DNA of 64,000 nucleotides, taken from a virus. Taxonomy: Duplodnaviria > Caudoviricetes. Made by a program: the position numbers and the translations under genes. This document shows positions 5,094-23,169 of the stretch, one piece after another. The notes below the pieces were generated by a model. The model had not been told where the DNA came from, made no database searches, and saw only the letters and a list, made by a program, of their open reading frames with translations. Position 1 is the stretch's first letter. Every line of letters starts with the position of its first letter. The stretch is taken from IMG/VR virus record IMGVR_UViG_3300032332_001787, positions 96,001 through 160,000 of that record; one strand, given 5' to 3'.

Positions 5094-6012
5094 AAATAAC
5101 TGTAAATTATTACCACATATTAGAACAGATTTGTATGGCTTATCTCCTGATAGTATGCAATTTTTTAGTTGGCCTATTAAAAAATTTGATGTAGAAAAAC
5201 AATGGAATCATTCTCAAGGAGAAGGCGTTACAGTAGCGGTGATAGATACTGGTTGTGACGTAAATCATGAAGATTTAAAAGATAATATTATTGATGGATA
5301 CAATTTTATAAATCCAGGCAAAGATCCTGTAGATGAGAATGGTCATGGTACACATGTTTCAGCTACAATAGCAGCCATAAATAATGGCATAGGAATGGTA
5401 GGAATTGCTCCAAGGTCGAAAATCATGCCTGTTAAAGTGCTGGGTGCTGACGGAGCAGGTAGTAATATAAATGTCGCAAACGGCATTGTGTGGGCTGCTG
5501 ACAACGGAGCAGACATCATAACCATGTCTCTTGGTTCGGAAAATCCATGTGATCAGATAGCGCAAGCTATAGAATATGCAAAAAACAAAGAGTCTATTAT
5601 TTTTTGTGCTGCTGGAAATAGTGGAATAGAATCAGGTATAATGTATCCAGCTAAATATAATCATACAATTAGCATTGGTGCCATAGACGAAAACTTAAAT
5701 ATTTGTGAATTCAGTTGTTGCGGAGATGAGCTTGATTTCTTAGCGCCCGGCCATAATATAGTTAGTGCAGTGCCTAACAATAAATATGCTTCGATGACTG
5801 GAACCAGCATGGCTAACCCATTTGCGGTGGGGTGTGCCGCTTTATTTTTATCATATGCTAGAAAAATTAAATTCTCTTCGTTAGACAATATGTTAAGAAA
5901 TACAGAAGACTATATTTCTATTTTTGCAAAAAAATCTTTGAAACTGAAAGATAAAAAATACTCTGGCAATAAAAAATACGAGGGGTATGGTATAATCAGA
6001 CCCGTGCTCTAA
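5080..6012 (+). CDS. subtilisin-like serine protease (S8)
   Basis: VAVIDTG, HGTHV, AAGN, GTSMANP. Confidence 0.95.
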   Translation: MKKNKNNCKLLPHIRTDLYGLSPDSMQFFSWPIKKFDVEKQWNHSQGEGVTVAVIDTGCDVNHEDLKDNIIDGYNFINPGKDPVDENGHGTHVSATIAAINNGIGMVGIAPRSKIMPVKVLGADGAGSNINVANGIVWAADNGADIITMSLGSENPCDQIAQAIEYAKNKESIIFCAAGNSGIESGIMYPAKYNHTISIGAIDENLNICEFSCCGDELDFLAPGHNIVSAVPNNKYASMTGTSMANPFAVGCAALFLSYARKIKFSSLDNMLRNTEDYISIFAKKSLKLKDKKYSGNKKYEGYGIIRPVL

Positions 6013-17645: not shown

Positions 17646-18224
17646 ATGCTTATTGATGAACAAAATCCGAAACTAGGTGCAAATCTAGACCTTAATAGTT
17701 TTAATATTGCAGGCACAGGTTCTATTGATGCTATTGGGAGTGGAAATTTTACTCAAGGTCTATATATTAATAGTACTGGAGTGAGCTTAAACAATCACAC
17801 TCATCTGATAGCAAATATAAGTGGATTGCAAATTGCTCTGGATAATAAACAACCATCTGGCAGCTACGCTCTATCTAGCCACACTCATCTAATAGAAAAT
17901 ATTAGTGGATTGCAAATTGCGCTGGATAACAAACAACCATCTGGTTCTTATGCTCCTGCTGTGCATACTCATACCTCTTCTGATATTATAGGATTCAATA
18001 GTTCTGTTAGTGGATTGCTTCCTGTCTTAAATGTTGCTGGAAGTAGCAATATCGATGTTGTTTCCATTAATAAAACATTTACTATTACTTCTACTGGATT
18101 AATTAAAAGTGATGTAACAAACATCAATAATGCTTCAATTGTTAATAATATTGTTGTAATGAGTGAAGCAAACTACAATTCACTTGCTGTTAAAGATTCC
18201 AACACCATTTATTTTGTAACCTAA
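17646..18224 (+). CDS. tail-fibre-like protein
   Basis: NP.LG.NLDLN.F.I, HTH.I..ISGLQ.ALD.KQ repeats, C-terminal NYNSLAVKDSNTIYF module. Confidence 0.75.
   Translation: MLIDEQNPKLGANLDLNSFNIAGTGSIDAIGSGNFTQGLYINSTGVSLNNHTHLIANISGLQIALDNKQPSGSYALSSHTHLIENISGLQIALDNKQPSGSYAPAVHTHTSSDIIGFNSSVSGLLPVLNVAGSSNIDVVSINKTFTITSTGLIKSDVTNINNASIVNNIVVMSEANYNSLAVKDSNTIYFVT
17796..17963 (+). repeat. 2 x 84-bp (28-aa) tandem repeat, HTHLI.NISGLQIALDNKQPSGSYA
   Basis: Units start at 17796 and 17880, near-identical DNA. Confidence 0.9.
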
Positions 18225-18712: not shown

Positions 18713-18934
18713 ATGCCCAGACCTTTTACAGATATCTCAAAATCAATTAGTACTAATCCTATTAAAAATGGAACACTAGTAACTTCTACAACATTTACAG
18801 GAAAATATTCTGTTAATAATAATTATGTTAAAAATACTCCAATTATAGATACTATAGCTAGCAAATATGGCTATAGATTCTATAACGGAATTTTTGTACA
18901 ATTAGTTGGTGACCAAACACTAATAGGTGGATAA
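18713..18934 (+). CDS. hypothetical protein
   Basis: GGAGA RBS; TAATG coupling to next gene. Confidence 0.7.
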   Translation: MPRPFTDISKSISTNPIKNGTLVTSTTFTGKYSVNNNYVKNTPIIDTIASKYGYRFYNGIFVQLVGDQTLIGG

Positions 18935-21174
18935 TGAGTATAAAAAGAATAAATCAATTTCCAGAAGGTAGTGGCAGTCTAACCTCAGATGACGTTTTCC
19001 TATTTATGGATGATCCATCTAATAGTGGAACCACTAAGAAAATTAGTTTGAATCAAATAGCAAATGCTATTGGGGGAAATGCTTCAATTCTAAAATCAAC
19101 ATATAGTTCAGGAAATGAAGGCGGCGAAATACAACTAGCAAAACCAGTAAACAGTTCATTGAATGGTGATGTTGTAGTTGATGTTTATCAAGATAAATTA
19201 CGTATATTTGAAGGTGGAGGAAATTCTCGTGGAGGTTATTTTGATTTGACCACAATGGGAAATAATGCATCTACAAATTTATCTAATTCAACTAACGGTA
19301 CAAGTTTTCAAATATCCTCAGTAGACCTTCATAATGGAGGAGTACAGAATGCTCAAGTTTTAAAATTTGACAATTCTAACTATCAATCAGTAATTACAGG
19401 ACCAATCCCAACATCAGGTAATACAGCACAAAGATTAATCATCCAGGGTCAACGTGCGCAAGGTGGGGGTGAGGGTGGAGATGTTTATTTATGGGGTGGT
19501 GATGCTGATATTAATGGTGGTGATATTAAAATATATGCTGGTGATGCTGATAGTAACGAATCCGGGAATGGTGGATATATTAATATTGACGCTGGCAATG
19601 GACATGATAATGGTGGACAAGTTAGTATTAGTGCTGGAAACTCTTCTGTCCAAGGTGGAAATGTTAATATTCGTGCTGGCTATCCGAGCGGGAATGTTGT
19701 AATTGATGCTAATGGAGGTAGTCAAAGTTGGAATTTTAAATCAGATGGTACAGTATCCTTACCATCAAATACTCTAGATGGTGGAACCAATAGTATAGAT
19801 ATCAAAAGCTCAAACTATGCTGGATTATGGTATCAGTCTGGTCCTAGTGGAACACCAGATAACTATATAGAAAATCCAAATAATAATAGTGAAGCTTATT
19901 TTTGGACAACATATGATGGCACACATATTGAAAACTATAGAGTTAATGACGGAACCAATCCATCATTGAGTTATGAATGGCATTTTAGTAATGATGGTAA
20001 ATTAAGACATCCAGATGGAACAACTAATAGCGGAGGAACTGTGGTTGCTCCTGGAACATATGATATACAAAGTATTGAGAATACGCTAATTCAAACCAGC
20101 GCTAGTGCTCAAGCCAAAACTTGGGACTTTGGTACAGATGGTGGTTTAACACTACCAAAAGGAAGCATACTAAGCGAAACAAATAATACAGTGTCTTTAA
20201 TGCCACCAACAGCGTCTTCTGGACAGAGCTTGGTAATTCGTCCAACCGCTGCACCTTGGAGTATTAATTCTAGTAATTATATTGAGTATGGTAATTCTAT
20301 CACTATTTCAGTTACTATAAATGGTTGGGTTTATTTTGGAACAGTAAACTATACAATCTCTGGTGCTGGAGTTACTTCACAATCATTAGGTCGAGAATTA
20401 ACTGGCAAAATAACTTTCTCAGGCATTAGTGGTCAACCAGATACAAAAAATATTACTTGGACTATACCAGCTAATAGTAATATCTCCGAATTTACTTTTA
20501 CATTAACTAGTGTTGACGGAACAAGACCGGGTCCAGATGTTGCAGACGCAAACCTTTATCCAGAACTATATTACAATTTTGAAGAATCCAACGGAATGCC
20601 TATTGGTCAATTTATTACAGTAACCAATAATGGAATATCTAGTTCAGAGCATAGTCATGTACATCTTGTATCAGGAGATCCTTCAACAGTTGATATTTAT
20701 TTAGGTGATGATGATCAATACGTTAAGATTGAAAAAAATGGTGGAGATGTGATTGTTGGCACCAATTCAAATACTCACCTTTGGACTTTTGATACAGACG
20801 GCAAATTAATATTACCAGGAGGATATGCTCAAGTTGTTGTAGAGGGTGATGCTGGGGTTCGTATTGGAACAGCGGAAACTAACGTTGCTCCCAATAGCCA
20901 AATTAAAATCGGCGGTGCTGAACATGCGTTTGAAATCTTTGGAGGGCCTCCTGGATATAGCTGGAAGTTTGAAGGAAATGGTGAACTAACATTACCAGCT
21001 AGTGGTAGTATCACATTCCCAGATAATACCACCCAAACTTCTGCTGGCATACCAAGTAATACCGGACTAGTTCCAAATTCAGTTAGTATTACTAATATGG
21101 TTAGTATCTCACAAAGTAATTATGATGCGATAGCAACAAAAGACCCTAACACATTGTACATAATTAATAACTGA
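18934..21174 (+). CDS. long tail fibre / receptor-binding protein
   Basis: IKRINQFP start, Gly-rich GG.V.I.AG repeats, repeated W.F..DG.L.LP knots, C-terminal NYDAIATKDPNTLYII module. Confidence 0.8.
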   Translation: MSIKRINQFPEGSGSLTSDDVFLFMDDPSNSGTTKKISLNQIANAIGGNASILKSTYSSGNEGGEIQLAKPVNSSLNGDVVVDVYQDKLRIFEGGGNSRGGYFDLTTMGNNASTNLSNSTNGTSFQISSVDLHNGGVQNAQVLKFDNSNYQSVITGPIPTSGNTAQRLIIQGQRAQGGGEGGDVYLWGGDADINGGDIKIYAGDADSNESGNGGYINIDAGNGHDNGGQVSISAGNSSVQGGNVNIRAGYPSGNVVIDANGGSQSWNFKSDGTVSLPSNTLDGGTNSIDIKSSNYAGLWYQSGPSGTPDNYIENPNNNSEAYFWTTYDGTHIENYRVNDGTNPSLSYEWHFSNDGKLRHPDGTTNSGGTVVAPGTYDIQSIENTLIQTSASAQAKTWDFGTDGGLTLPKGSILSETNNTVSLMPPTASSGQSLVIRPTAAPWSINSSNYIEYGNSITISVTINGWVYFGTVNYTISGAGVTSQSLGRELTGKITFSGISGQPDTKNITWTIPANSNISEFTFTLTSVDGTRPGPDVADANLYPELYYNFEESNGMPIGQFITVTNNGISSSEHSHVHLVSGDPSTVDIYLGDDDQYVKIEKNGGDVIVGTNSNTHLWTFDTDGKLILPGGYAQVVVEGDAGVRIGTAETNVAPNSQIKIGGAEHAFEIFGGPPGYSWKFEGNGELTLPASGSITFPDNTTQTSAGIPSNTGLVPNSVSITNMVSISQSNYDAIATKDPNTLYIINN

Positions 21175-21182
21175 GAATTCGC

Positions 21183-23114
21183 ATGACAACAATAAATAGC
21201 GAAATATTTTTAAGCAACTCCAACATAACCTCTGTTAAATTAGGAAATACTGGTGTTTCTAAAATATTTTTAGGAAATAATATAGTATTTGAAGCTACTG
21301 ACAACTGCCCTGACTCAACGTCTAGCGTTAAAATGACAGGATGGTTTGTTGGTGATCGAATTCTATCTCCGATTGGATATGCTCCTTATGGACGTGAAAC
21401 TTATATCTATGGGGATGAAGCTGTTCGATATGAAACTGGAGTATGGATTTATACTAATACTGGAGGAGAGATTGTTAGGGCATATAGTTATGCTGACCGG
21501 CCTTGGCTAGTAGAGTGGCCGTCCCCATATGCTGCTGAGAAAGTTCGTCAAGATGGTACGTCATGTGAGTCTGCAAGTACAACAACCACTACAACAACCA
21601 CAACAACCACCACAGAAGCACCAACTTTTGGAAGTTCAGGATTTCAGTGGATGACAATGAATTCTATTACAGAGTCTACAGCATCAGGGATTGGTCAAAA
21701 TAATATAACAATAAATGTTACCCAAAATGGTGGCGGTATGTTTCTACATAACGGAGCGGTCGGAGCCACTAATTTTCCAATAGAATATGGAGTACCAACT
21801 GACGGTAATCAAATTGCAAACACTCAACCCGGAGTATTTACTGCAATATTTAGTTCACCCGTTACAGATGCTCTTGTTGCATTTGCCAGTGTCGGACAAG
21901 CAGGATTACAAGTTCCTGTTATGGTACTTGATGAGAATTCTAATCCAAAACCTTTTACTCCAATTTGGTCGTCCAATGCTATTATTCCGGGTACACAAAC
22001 AACGTATTTGAATCAAGTAAGTCCAACTCAATACACACAATTTGTTGGAGAAGAAGGATACAATATTATCCGAATTGACGGAACAATGAGTAGTGTGACA
22101 TTCAATTATGGCTCCGCTGAATATTACTGCACAGTTTGTTTTGGATTTGTGGATCAAAATGTTACAACCACTACAACCACAGAAGCACCAACAACCACAA
22201 CCACAACTACAACACCAGCTACAGTATCGCCAGGAGCTAATTCTGCTAATTTTAATGTTTGTGCTGATTGGGATGGCGCGGATGGCAATGTTACTACTGT
22301 GGGAAGTAATGGTGGACCTAGTGCATACGGTACTTATGATCAAAGTGGACAGGTTTTTGAGTGGAACGATTTAGATAACACTCCCGACTCGTCTCGCGGG
22401 TTGCGGGGCGGCAATTGGTACTTCAACAGTCAGTTCCTCTTGTCGTCCTCCTTCAACAAATTGGAAGACCCGTCGTTCAAGAACTTCTACATCGGTTTTC
22501 GTCTCGCTAGTTCCTTCTCTATACTTAATCCTTTAAATCTTCCTAACTTGGTAGCTGTTAGTGATGTTAACAACGCTTCTGATACTGCGGGAAGCATTGG
22601 AAAAGGAGGTGTAAGTTACAATTATGCTATAGGAAAATATCTTGTAACTAATAGCGAATATGTAGAATTTTTAAATGCTGTTGCTGCAACCGACACATAT
22701 TCTCTTTACTACTCAAGGATGGCAGGTGATATAGGTGGTATCACAAGATCAGAAACTAGTGGAAGTTATACTTACAGCGTAAAAACTAATTACGGAAACA
22801 AGCCGCTCAACTGGGTAAGCTGGTTTGATTGCGCCCGATACTGTAATTGGTTACACAACGAAAAACCAACCGGGTCTCAAAACAGCAGTACTACCGAAGA
22901 TGGAGCTTACACATTAAATGGTGCCGTTTCTGGAAATGCCGCTGTCAGAAACTCCGGAGCAAAATACCACATCCCCACAGAAAACGAATGGTATAAAGCG
23001 GCTTATTACAAGGGTGGCGGGACCAATTCTGGGTATTGGAGTTATGCCACCCAAAGCGATACTAATCCAACTTGCGTTAGTGCTGATGCTTCCGGTAATG
23101 GAATAATACCATAG
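21183..23114 (+). CDS. multi-domain tail/receptor-binding protein with Thr-rich linkers and a circularly permuted FGE-sulfatase (C-type lectin fold) domain
   Basis: GTYDQSGQVFEW, RGLRGGNW, IGFRLAS occur before IGKYLVTN.EY.EFLN, VSWFDCARYCNWL, IPTENEWYKAAY. Confidence 0.85.
   Translation: MTTINSEIFLSNSNITSVKLGNTGVSKIFLGNNIVFEATDNCPDSTSSVKMTGWFVGDRILSPIGYAPYGRETYIYGDEAVRYETGVWIYTNTGGEIVRAYSYADRPWLVEWPSPYAAEKVRQDGTSCESASTTTTTTTTTTTTEAPTFGSSGFQWMTMNSITESTASGIGQNNITINVTQNGGGMFLHNGAVGATNFPIEYGVPTDGNQIANTQPGVFTAIFSSPVTDALVAFASVGQAGLQVPVMVLDENSNPKPFTPIWSSNAIIPGTQTTYLNQVSPTQYTQFVGEEGYNIIRIDGTMSSVTFNYGSAEYYCTVCFGFVDQNVTTTTTTEAPTTTTTTTTPATVSPGANSANFNVCADWDGADGNVTTVGSNGGPSAYGTYDQSGQVFEWNDLDNTPDSSRGLRGGNWYFNSQFLLSSSFNKLEDPSFKNFYIGFRLASSFSILNPLNLPNLVAVSDVNNASDTAGSIGKGGVSYNYAIGKYLVTNSEYVEFLNAVAATDTYSLYYSRMAGDIGGITRSETSGSYTYSVKTNYGNKPLNWVSWFDCARYCNWLHNEKPTGSQNSSTTEDGAYTLNGAVSGNAAVRNSGAKYHIPTENEWYKAAYYKGGGTNSGYWSYATQSDTNPTCVSADASGNGIIP
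21578..21620 (+). repeat. Thr-rich linker (ACA/ACC/ACT repeats)
   Basis: STTTTTTTTTTTEAP; similar run at about 22164-22220 (TTTTTEAPTTTTTTTTPA). Confidence 0.85.
22386..22514 (+). other. putative DGR variable region (VR)-like segment
   Basis: 63/120 GC over 22381-22500; encodes the CLec loop RGGNW...GFRLAS; many NNC codons (tac ttc aac ... ttc ctc ... aac ttc tac atc); no TR or RT seen in window. Confidence 0.55.
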
Positions 23115-23120
23115 CCTATT

Positions 23121-23128
23121 GGTGTATT
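23121..23128 (+). promoter_or_regulatory. putative phage promoter motif GGTGTATT
   Basis: 49 nt upstream of ATG 23170. Confidence 0.55.
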
Positions 23129-23169
23129 ACTATCTTAGATATATAATCTATTTTTAATTGGAGTTTAAA

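Follow-up and report, generated by a model that had tools for sequence, protein, structure and literature searches.

The window, a stretch of 64,000 nucleotides, belongs to a 230-kb freshwater phage genome record, linear without end repeats and scored at 100% by CheckV. On its plus strand an ORF at 21183..23114 encodes, by translation, the 643-aa protein P0001 of the tail-fibre cluster; Phage_tail_C is present in both upstream genes (17646-18224 and 18934-21174). P0001 consists of an N-terminal domain, a threonine linker and a C-terminal, permuted FGE/CLec module, and with this module it is presumably a receptor-binding protein. The conserved N-terminal domain (21183..22163, plus strand) ends in the motif CFGFVDQNV, which is where the protein terminates in the closest relatives (products of 322-326 aa in L002-L004 and L012). 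The module is also skipped in runs X2 and X5, where contigs join 22161/22162 to 23145/23148. The translated linker, rich in Thr and Pro, lies between N-domain and module (22164..22217, plus strand), and its low-complexity ACN repeats draw in many unrelated contigs. A blastn search of the phage GenBank collection gave no match to the gene, and the NCBIfam search returned no family.

The module is read in two parts, both on the plus strand. Part 1 (22218..22514; GTYDQSGQVFEW...RGG...GFRLAS) corresponds to what is normally the C-terminal third of the FGE/CLec domain, and part 2 (22545..23111; YAIGKYLVTNSEY...WVSWFDCARYCNWL...IPTENEWYKAAYY) to its normally N-terminal two thirds. PF03781 matched in two stretches (1.4e-16; 61.4 bits versus a gathering cut-off of 23.3), with Pfam profile positions 34-126 falling on aa 477-611. 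Alignment to SUMF2 made the inverted order explicit, residues 187-234 aligning to aa 370-415 and residues 117-142 to aa 541-566, and residues 419-502 and 181-394 of a canonical bacterial DGR target aligned to parts 1 and 2, respectively. An AlphaFold model of the module (pLDDT 95, pTM 0.94) agreed, its two parts falling on opposite halves of FGE/CLec structures: part 1 aligned structurally to C-terminal regions (EgtB, Mtd, TaqVP) and model residues 102-299 to N-terminal ones (CarF, TvpA, PorK, ToxD). Among these, TvpA, Mtd and TaqVP are DGR proteins. Foldseek gave no match against the PDB at E<=0.001, with FGE-family entries topping its list; this null result is expected for a sequential aligner given a permuted domain. 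The permuted segment order, which is not the canonical PF03781 order, is kept in 50+ phage loci. The family of circularly permuted FGE/CLec modules is a large one (9268 representatives at E<=1e-3) and seems to be undescribed so far.

DGR-type FGE domains are generally held to be binding modules. The first-pass annotation had proposed a permuted DGR target with a VR in mid-gene, and sequence and fold both bear this out. The VR block (22384..22511, plus strand, 128 nt, codons 402-443), delimited by homology to a TR, coincides with the RGG...GFR loop of the FGE/CLec fold, the binding loop on which it had been placed, and the part of the model that carries the VR aligns to the corresponding VR-bearing regions in Mtd, TaqVP and EgtB. 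The block is not at the 3' end of the gene; 603 nt separate its end from the stop codon. It lies in mid-gene, about 600 nt before the stop, because the domain is circularly permuted.

Composition of the loop block and its match to a TR

The same annotation had described 22386-22514 as a sharply bounded GC-rich block, with 63/120 G+C against a background of about 30%. The excess is real (67/129 or 51.9% G+C; 62/120 in the first 120 nt), while the background had been put somewhat too low: the genome stands at 34.7%, the gene at 41% and the C-terminal module at 43%. No more than 1.7% of 129-nt windows in the genome are as GC-rich, in 43 patches genome-wide and two in the window. Synonymous sites show the anomaly much more strongly than plain GC does. 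Given the same amino acids and the phage's own codon usage, a GC3 of 0.22 would be expected and 0.77 was observed, compared with 0.32 and 0.52 for total GC, and A content is 17.8% versus 31% in the gene. Since GC3 is far above expectation and the block is A-poor, the excess is not an amino-acid effect. Its edges are less sharp than described when judged by plain GC. The island equals the TR-homologous segment, and in the phage genes it stops where TR homology stops, which refines the limits to 22384-22511.

The TR was predicted from an alignment of phage relatives and then sought in metagenome contigs. Against TR type 2 (L325/L334), the window VR aligns without gaps over 128 nt, with 104 identical positions (81%). 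The mismatches fall at 15 of 32 TR adenines versus nine of 96 other bases (Fisher p=1.4e-5), and the changes at A sites hit the first codon position eight times, the second six times and the third once. All nine non-A changes run from G/C to A/T. With this cognate TR, nine is more than a freshly written VR would show; the true donor may be a TR other than the variants sampled, in which case some of these mismatches would stem from it and not from decay.

Around a dozen homologous modules in other AT-rich phages carry the same block, with GC3 of 0.55-0.84 inside and 0.21-0.37 outside; more distant paralogues are without a GC3-rich block. A-free scaffold codons do alternate with NNC codons, a pattern described at first for this gene alone and present, at the nucleotide level, in the homologous phage genes as well. 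The scaffolds (cgg ggc ggc, ttg tcg tcc tcc, ccg tcg, and ggt ttt cgt ctc gca agt) are conserved even at synonymous sites, unlike the flanks of the blocks, which have diverged, and the codons between them are mostly NNC and differ from phage to phage. Among gapless phage VRs, 27/32 and 27/31 TR-A positions are variable, compared with 26/96 and 20/94 non-A positions. The phage lineages also match different TR variants, which include a 3-nt length difference: the window and L090 pair with the 128-nt 'aat tgg ... aat ccg' TR, L052 with a 'ctc cgc ggc ggc' variant (89% identity) and L074 with a 'ctt cgg' variant. Taken together, these nucleotide comparisons show 22384-22511 to be a DGR VR, copied with adenine-specific mutagenesis from a TR outside the phage.

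A phage without a retroelement and bacteria with one

That the window holds no TR or RT had been noted before, and the statement extends to the whole phage genome and to Avd. In the 230-kb record BLAST recovered no TR, only the block itself; so did a TR/VR scanner built on blastn, whose validity had been checked with 17 real DGRs of phages and bacteria, and an exhaustive adenine-tolerant ungapped scan of both strands likewise found the block alone. Six-frame profile searches of the phage for RVT_1 (PF00078) and bAvd (PF22296) found neither RT nor Avd, and the RT and Avd of the TR contig L334 had no tblastn match in it. No RT was found in 47 related phage records (approximately 4.5 Mb; eight at least 90% complete, most 7-82%), among which are two complete genomes with GC-rich VRs, G000 and G010. 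The 13 records holding GC-rich VRs contained no second TR-like copy, and within 10 kb of the homologous modules there was no TR, the matches being paralogous VRs and Thr-linker repeats. In scans of the viral collection, CGGGGCGGCAACTGGAAC matched real TRs, but those of unrelated GC-rich DGR phages, TTGTCGTCCTCSAAC gave chance matches only, and AACGAGAACAACAACATCGGKTTYCGT found two GC-rich DGR contigs with a bacterial framework. An assembly chimera was rejected: the block is in frame, fits the fold and recurs across over 12 independent contigs as well as Logan contigs from two samples.

Fourteen contigs from lake metagenomes, with a GC content of 62-67%, proved to contain the predicted TR. On them lie complete canonical DGRs, with an FGE target, bAvd (2.8e-21), RVT_1 (7.7e-21) and the TR, so that TR, RT and Avd occur in one genome there and not in the phage. 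Between 83 and 93% of mismatches in their cis VRs lie at TR adenines. All 14 TRs sit in uniformly GC-rich contigs among bacterial-type neighbours (the PEP-CTERM target, a sigma-factor-like ORF and an ATPase-like ORF). In L334 and its 13 relatives the TR is equal in length to the window block and has the same scaffolds, and no canonical homologue is nearer to the phage module than the L334-type target (43% identity in the N-part, 52% in the VR-bearing part). This bacterial target has the canonical FGE order, a signal peptide and a PEP-CTERM anchor; its VR closes the domain at the 3' end and is followed by a plausible hairpin. The phage module, unlike it, is permuted, Thr-linked to a fibre N-domain and AT-rich outside the VR. 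Of the search for a TR in genome and host that had been suggested, the first half thus yielded no copy in the phage, whereas a matching TR with adenine-specific mismatches did turn up in GC-rich, bacterial-type DGR cassettes.

The nearest relatives of the TR contigs are Pirellulales/Planctomycetota. A Pirellulales MAG (G051) shares 86% nucleotide identity over 152 nt of the RT and has about 10 TR/VR-like copies, and none of 400 sampled Planctomycetota genomes came closer to the TR element. The contigs and their relatives show the donor DGR family to reside in planctomycete-like (Pirellulales-like) freshwater bacteria of 62-67% GC. The TR-VR match hints at the host of the phage, which may be sought among such bacteria. 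Phage and TR element had no common run among the runs listed, which is not evidence of absence.

The window VR itself appears inactive. Its closest relative, L349/P0158, is 93% identical over the module, and near-identical copies show no hypervariability: L349 and the X2 contig differ at 4/127 positions in the VR versus 56/755 outside, and the four differences in L349 are ordinary and mostly at third positions. Contigs of the source run have no variant paths at the VR, although contigs may hide rare variants. The phage VR is not followed by a GC-rich hairpin: the 86 nt that span its end and continue past it fold with an MFE of -2.3 kcal/mol (z=0.28). Because the closest relative lacks extra variation in the block, the window copy is, by all appearances, an orphan that is now decaying; with non-A changes all towards A/T, the suggestion of a fossil VR holds for the window lineage.

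How the VR may have been written

We consider it probable that the VR derives from a bacterial TR, was rewritten recurrently inside a shared cell and survives in the window as an old orphan. Phage DNA would meet the bacterial DGR within a cell, where the phage VR, with conserved ends common to the bacterial VR, would be rewritten from TR-derived information, either by cDNA retrohoming in trans, the favoured route, or by patch conversion from the host's own VR. Such rewriting would have recurred independently in related phages, each fitting another TR variant. In the window lineage the last rewriting would be old, the orphan drifting to A/T through ordinary point mutation. An earlier suggestion, a VR served in trans by a distant TR/RT, is upheld as far as a matching TR outside the phage is concerned, while the route in trans is the favoured one. 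The further proposal that lytic jumbo phages have their receptor-binding loop rewritten in trans by a DGR of the host they infect, recurrently in lakes, is possible and is put forward tentatively. Phages that lack any retroelement would then borrow hypermutation machinery from their host, and about a dozen phage lineages would each bear the imprint of another TR variant. It would be unusual for a 35% GC phage to infect a bacterium of 63-67% GC, and this counts against the main reading, as do the missing hairpin and the lack of signs of present activity in the window VR.

Patch gene conversion, in which recombination with the diversified VR of the bacterial target would act without reverse transcription on phage DNA, we regard as unlikely on its own. 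The identical 20-30-nt scaffolds at the VR ends, both common to bacterial cis VRs and phage VRs, would serve as homology arms, and a missing phage hairpin is irrelevant to recombination. Several details fit this route. At the 3' junction, after 'gcaag', phage VRs bear a T as bacterial VRs do, where the TR has C, and in L090 similarity to the bacterial target extends upstream of the TR boundary (80%/192 nt to L329), with a 'ggc act tcc ggc tcg' identical to the flank of the L329 cis VR and unlike the TR. Nucleotide identity beyond the block is, however, too low for long homology arms, and phage blocks are closer to TRs (81-89%) than to sampled cis VRs and flanks (64-80%), although the latter is expected under either route since cis VRs are hypervariable. 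Patch conversion needs the same encounter and leaves the same footprint as retrohoming, so that sequence alone cannot separate the two.

Much less probable is a relic of a phage-borne DGR, that is, an ancestral avd-TR-RT cassette acquired from a planctomycete, which would have diversified the VR in cis before its loss. In favour of such a relic, the window copy is clearly inactive, the GC-rich viral contigs L312 and L313 hold related TRs, and a distant cassette could lie off-contig in the many related records that are fragments (7-82% complete). Against this stand the count of 0/47 for RT, complete G000 and G010 included, and the uniformly GC-rich, bacterial-type setting of all 14 TRs. Moreover, which bacterial TR variant fits depends on the phage lineage, the 3-nt difference in length included, and a phage-borne relic would therefore need repeated gain and loss.

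The first-pass annotation had itself named transfer from a GC-rich host as an alternative, and this is partly right, because the donor information stems from a GC-rich bacterium; its DGR-free version, a module from such a host with GC-rich loop codons through chance, codon or DNA-structure selection, is scarcely tenable. It can draw on the composition of the whole module (GC 43% versus 35% for the genome; GC3 0.37) and on a second, weaker patch at 22773-22860 (GC3 0.6), for which no TR-like counterpart was found (22801-22860), but it leaves unexplained why the block matches a non-coding AAC-rich TR at 81% without gaps, why the mismatches are adenine-specific, why codon positions 1 and 2 vary with position 3 conserved and why the island ends exactly at the TR limits, and no significant secondary structure was found at the VR.

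Relation to known DGRs and significance

With the BPP-1 system (Mtd/Avd/TR/Brt) the phage shares a receptor-binding protein with a CLec-fold tip, a TR-rewritten loop, adenine-specific mutagenesis and NNC codons amid invariant scaffolds; the first 100 model residues align to the Mtd structure (Z 3.6), and Mtd_N occurs in the upstream fibre gene of a related phage. In BPP-1, TR, RT and Avd adjoin the target, and the VR lies at the 3' end of mtd and is followed by a GC-rich hairpin (PMC3240598), which is required for efficient homing in the phage (PMC3240598). The window phage, in contrast, has no TR, RT or Avd and a mid-gene VR in a permuted FGE-type fold, and its matching TR is in a bacterial genome of very different GC. 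DGR donor functions work in trans from a plasmid, and IMH plus hairpin are enough to retarget them (PMC3240598, PMC5758913). TvpA of Treponema denticola is likewise an FGE-sulfatase-type CLec target (2y3c aligns to residues 102-295, Z 5.6), and in TvpA and other remote-target DGRs one TR serves VRs distant from the RT, that is, in trans (PMC5758913). Remote targets have been argued to be unexpected for phage-associated systems (Wu et al. 2018, PMC5758913), and large DGR surveys are blind to targets in other genomes (PMC8144416). The remote targets described share a genome with TR and RT, whereas here the VR is in a phage and the TR in a bacterial chromosome-like contig.

DGRs have, to our knowledge, been described as self-contained, with one genome for TR, RT and targets. 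Here, phage genomes free of a retroelement hold a VR whose TR is in bacterial cassettes of very different composition. As the permuted module shows, the DGR scaffold can be permuted and can accommodate a VR in mid-gene. If retrohoming is true, phages would use a host DGR to diversify their receptor-binding proteins and, seen from the bacterium, DGRs would write into invading DNA. Under either route, a 35% GC jumbo phage would meet 65% GC planctomycete-like cells, and TR-VR matching would link uncultured phages to their hosts at the level of a single TR variant.

A permuted module in a tail-fibre cluster

The source is an IMG/VR record, a linear phage genome of 230,097 bp (GC 34.7%; 100% complete by CheckV), of which the window spans bases 96001-160000. 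The gene under study (21183-23114, plus strand) encodes the 643-aa protein P0001 and follows two genes, 17646-18224 and 18934-21174, whose only domain, at the end of each, is the Pfam 'phage tail tip' domain (Phage_tail_C). The fibre gene (1325 aa; L349:2015-5992) that precedes the module-bearing gene in L349, the phage contig with the closest relative of the module described below, has both Phage_tail_C and Mtd_N, the domain at the N-terminus of the BPP-1 tropism determinant. These upstream genes place P0001 in a tail-fibre cluster and, judged from this gene context, it is most likely a distal, receptor-binding component.

In P0001 a Thr linker separates residues 1-327 from a module of 299 aa. 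Two stretches of this module match PF03781 (FGE-sulfatase), but in inverted order: residues 370-415 align to SUMF2 187-234, and 541-566 to SUMF2 117-142. An AlphaFold model of the module, computed from an alignment of 60 homologues, is a single compact domain (pLDDT 95.3, pTM 0.94). Sequential structural aligners paired model residues 102-299 with the N-terminal parts of CarF, TvpA, PorK, ToxD, PvdO and SUMF2; for residues 1-103 the counterparts are the C-terminal parts of EgtB, Mtd and TaqVP, which bear the variable region (VR) of diversity-generating retroelements (DGRs). Since the two halves are matched in inverted order, the modelled domain is a circularly permuted FGE-type C-type-lectin fold; Foldseek scores were weak because a permuted order is poorly served by sequential alignment. 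The permutation also accounts for the mid-gene position of the RGG...GFR loop, as the first-pass annotation had proposed. In other phage loci (L065:6972-8717, L084, L086 and L087) the halves occur in canonical order, or a permuted unit is followed by a canonical one, an arrangement that would be expected had a tandem duplication and a later truncation produced the permutation.

As an evolutionary module, the permuted unit is present at 51 viral loci, usually as the C-terminal part of varied proteins and often as 2 to 7 paralogues; a full HMMER scan at E<=1e-3 returned 9268 representatives, of which many lie in tandem, and relatives occur in hundreds of PVC-group bacterial genomes. The closest IMG/VR relatives of the P0001 N-domain have no module and stop at CFGFVDQNV. 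Contigs from other samples (sequencing runs X2 and X5) join 22161/22162 straight to 23145/23148, and 22161-23148 is thus a presence/absence cassette of about 985 bp including the linker. In L349 the module (92% aa identity) lies mid-protein in a 972-aa protein and is followed by an N-domain-like segment. The linkers differ in composition between relatives (poly-T vs TPTPSP), which suggests that they may be recombination points in module shuffling. The Thr-linker ACN repeats at 21544-21617 and 22136-22209 draw hundreds of unrelated contigs, with depth up to 5700 and spurious joints.

Composition and codon pattern of the variable region

A GC-rich block within the gene, with scaffold codons alternating with NNC codons, had been the original ground for suspecting a VR, and both features were confirmed. 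The GC content of 22386-22514 is 51.9%, which is 2.5 SD over the genome mean and attained by 1.7% of genome windows, and adenine makes up 18% of the block vs 31% of the gene. Most decisively, the high GC is not a product of amino-acid content: under phage codon usage the same residues would have 32% GC and a GC3 of 0.22, vs the observed 52% and 0.77, whereas the N-domain of P0001 agrees with phage usage (GC3 0.226 vs 0.225 expected). GC3 is also raised in the module stretches 22773-22860 and 22923-23010 (0.45-0.6 vs 0.2-0.3 expected), which lack a TR-like counterpart and are no more than about 65-68% identical in nucleotides to the bacterial target; these may be residual un-ameliorated sequence or reflect codon selection.

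The same loop is GC3-rich (0.55-0.84) and A-poor in about 12 homologous modules of other phages (GC 32-41%); more distant paralogues are without such a block, and a few are intermediate. When these genes are aligned by codon, synonymous sites are identical across phages in the scaffolds cgg ggc ggc, ttg tcg tcc tcc, ccg tcg and ggt ttt cgt ctc gca agt, but not in the flanks of the block, which have diverged synonymously, while the codons between scaffolds are mostly NNC and differ from phage to phage. A third base that stays fixed while codon positions 1 and 2 vary is the opposite of ordinary evolution and the hallmark of AAC-based DGR mutagenesis.

A template in GC-rich bacterial DGRs

The phage itself lacks DGR machinery. 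No second copy of the block was found in the phage genome by BLAST, an exhaustive adenine-tolerant scan or a TR/VR scanner (which recovered 17 true TR/VR pairs in control loci), and no reverse transcriptase (RT) or accessory protein (Avd) by Pfam RVT_1 and bAvd searches or by tblastn with the cognate proteins. The absence noted for the window therefore extends to the complete 230-kb record. Likewise, no RT was found in 47 records of related phages, and the 13 records with GC-rich blocks yielded no additional TR-like copy.

A template repeat (TR) was predicted from the phage alignment by placing AAC at the variable codons, and metagenome contigs were scanned for TTGTCGTCCTCSAACARSAAC. The scan found 14 contigs, all of 62-67% GC and all canonical DGRs, on which the predicted TR extends over about 125-128 nt and exists in several variants. 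On L334, one such contig, a secreted target protein, which has a PEP-CTERM anchor and an FGE-sulfatase domain in canonical order, is followed by bAvd (2.8e-21), RVT_1 (7.7e-21) and the TR. The cis VR is 89% identical to the TR, and all but one of the 14 mismatches fall at TR adenines. The TR element was found in lake and freshwater runs from at least 15 studies. On another of these GC-rich contigs (TR on the plus strand), a 144-nt sequence at L332:2072-2215, just 3' of the TR, is repeated 3.3 kb away at 5545-5688 with 99% identity, each copy containing an imperfect palindrome.

The best relatives of the bacterial target are in Planctomycetota/Pirellulales MAGs (58-63% identity). One Pirellulales MAG, G051 (behind locus L278), has an RT fragment of 86% nucleotide identity, and a sample of 400 genomes contained none closer. 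G051 also holds about 10 TR/VR-like copies of 127 nt (for example C3:92105-92541, C3:53340-53466 and C5:124065-124191), 69-82% identical to the L334 TR and spread over at least 7 contigs, which points to a putative DGR with many remote targets. In five verrucomicrobial and planctomycete loci (L241, L258, L288, L306 and L311), homologues of the module in canonical order come with bona fide TR/VR pairs whose members lie 1.5-1.9 kb from each other and have 81-100% of their mismatches at TR adenines. The homologues have the framework RGLRGGSWNN..NNL..SNRNNN.PTNENNNIGFR in common with the phage VRs.

The window block (22384-22511) aligns without gaps to TR type 2, the variant on L325 and L334, with 104 of 128 positions identical, and shares with it the diagnostic 'aat tgg' and the extra codon. 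Differences fall at 15 of 32 TR adenines and at 9 of 96 other positions (Fisher p=1.4e-5); the former are distributed 8:6:1 over codon positions 1:2:3, and all 9 of the latter are G/C to A/T. The expected adenine-directed TR is thus absent from the phage but present on GC-rich contigs, although its differences are not confined to adenines. Other phage loci fit other variants: L052 the 'ctc cgc ggc ggc' variant (89% identity) and L074 the 'ctt cgg' variant (18 A-site and 7 other mismatches; p=1.7e-8). In the phage genes the GC-rich island is the TR-homologous segment; upstream of it they resemble the bacterial target at the protein level only, with AT-rich codons, and downstream the homology stops at 'gcaagt'. 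The block is TR-templated, and its TR family sits in GC-rich bacterial-type DGRs, which supports the earlier reading of a DGR-derived mid-gene VR, served in trans or fossil.

Route of transfer and present state

Phage DNA and a bacterial DGR would have to have been together in one cell, where the VR would have been rewritten. We favor retrohoming in trans, because DGR donor functions serve other replicons in trans (PMC3240598, PMC5758913) and because the TRs themselves are the nearest match to the phage blocks. Patch conversion from the host's own VR would leave the same footprint, and in the phage locus L090 similarity to the bacterial target extends upstream, which shows that there is recombination with the target gene as well. 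Loss of a phage-borne DGR cassette is less likely, given the 47 RT-free related records and the lineage-specific TR pairing.

The block resembles the DGR VRs of the FGE-type C-type-lectin class (TvpA-like) and, like BPP-1 Mtd, is used on a phage fibre. It has the sequence-defining feature of a DGR target, a TR with A-specific differences, but not cis machinery, a 3'-terminal position with a hairpin or present hypervariability. Remote DGR targets are known within one genome only (PMC5758913), and a global DGR survey was unable to detect them (PMC8144416). In the literature collection searched, we found no report of a phage VR with its TR on a bacterial genome, or of a permuted FGE/C-type-lectin DGR scaffold.

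The hypervariability that the first-pass annotation had proposed to look for did not appear in the contigs, and its fossil option stood. Between the window and L349 (the contig seen in run X2), 4 of 127 VR positions differ vs 56 of 755 outside, and the four are ordinary: three are third-position changes, and at one the relative retains the TR base. Contigs of the source run follow a single path through the VR, though they cannot exclude rare variants. A GC-rich hairpin is plausible at the bacterial VR, but none lies 3' of the phage VR; in BPP-1 the hairpin is required for efficient homing, with weak hairpin-independent homing (PMC3240598). Taken with the A/T-directed non-A changes, these observations argue that the window VR is an orphan copy, slowly decaying.

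If phage and DGR shared a cell, planctomycete-like bacteria would be the hosts; that the phage and this putative host lie 30 points apart in GC is a main weakness of this reading. The VRs of L052 and L074 have fewer non-A changes than the window VR, and a few homologous modules have intermediate GC3, which suggests that phage VRs may differ in age since their last rewriting. Since distinct phage lineages match distinct TR variants, including a 3-nt length difference, information must have passed several times from these DGRs to phage genes.
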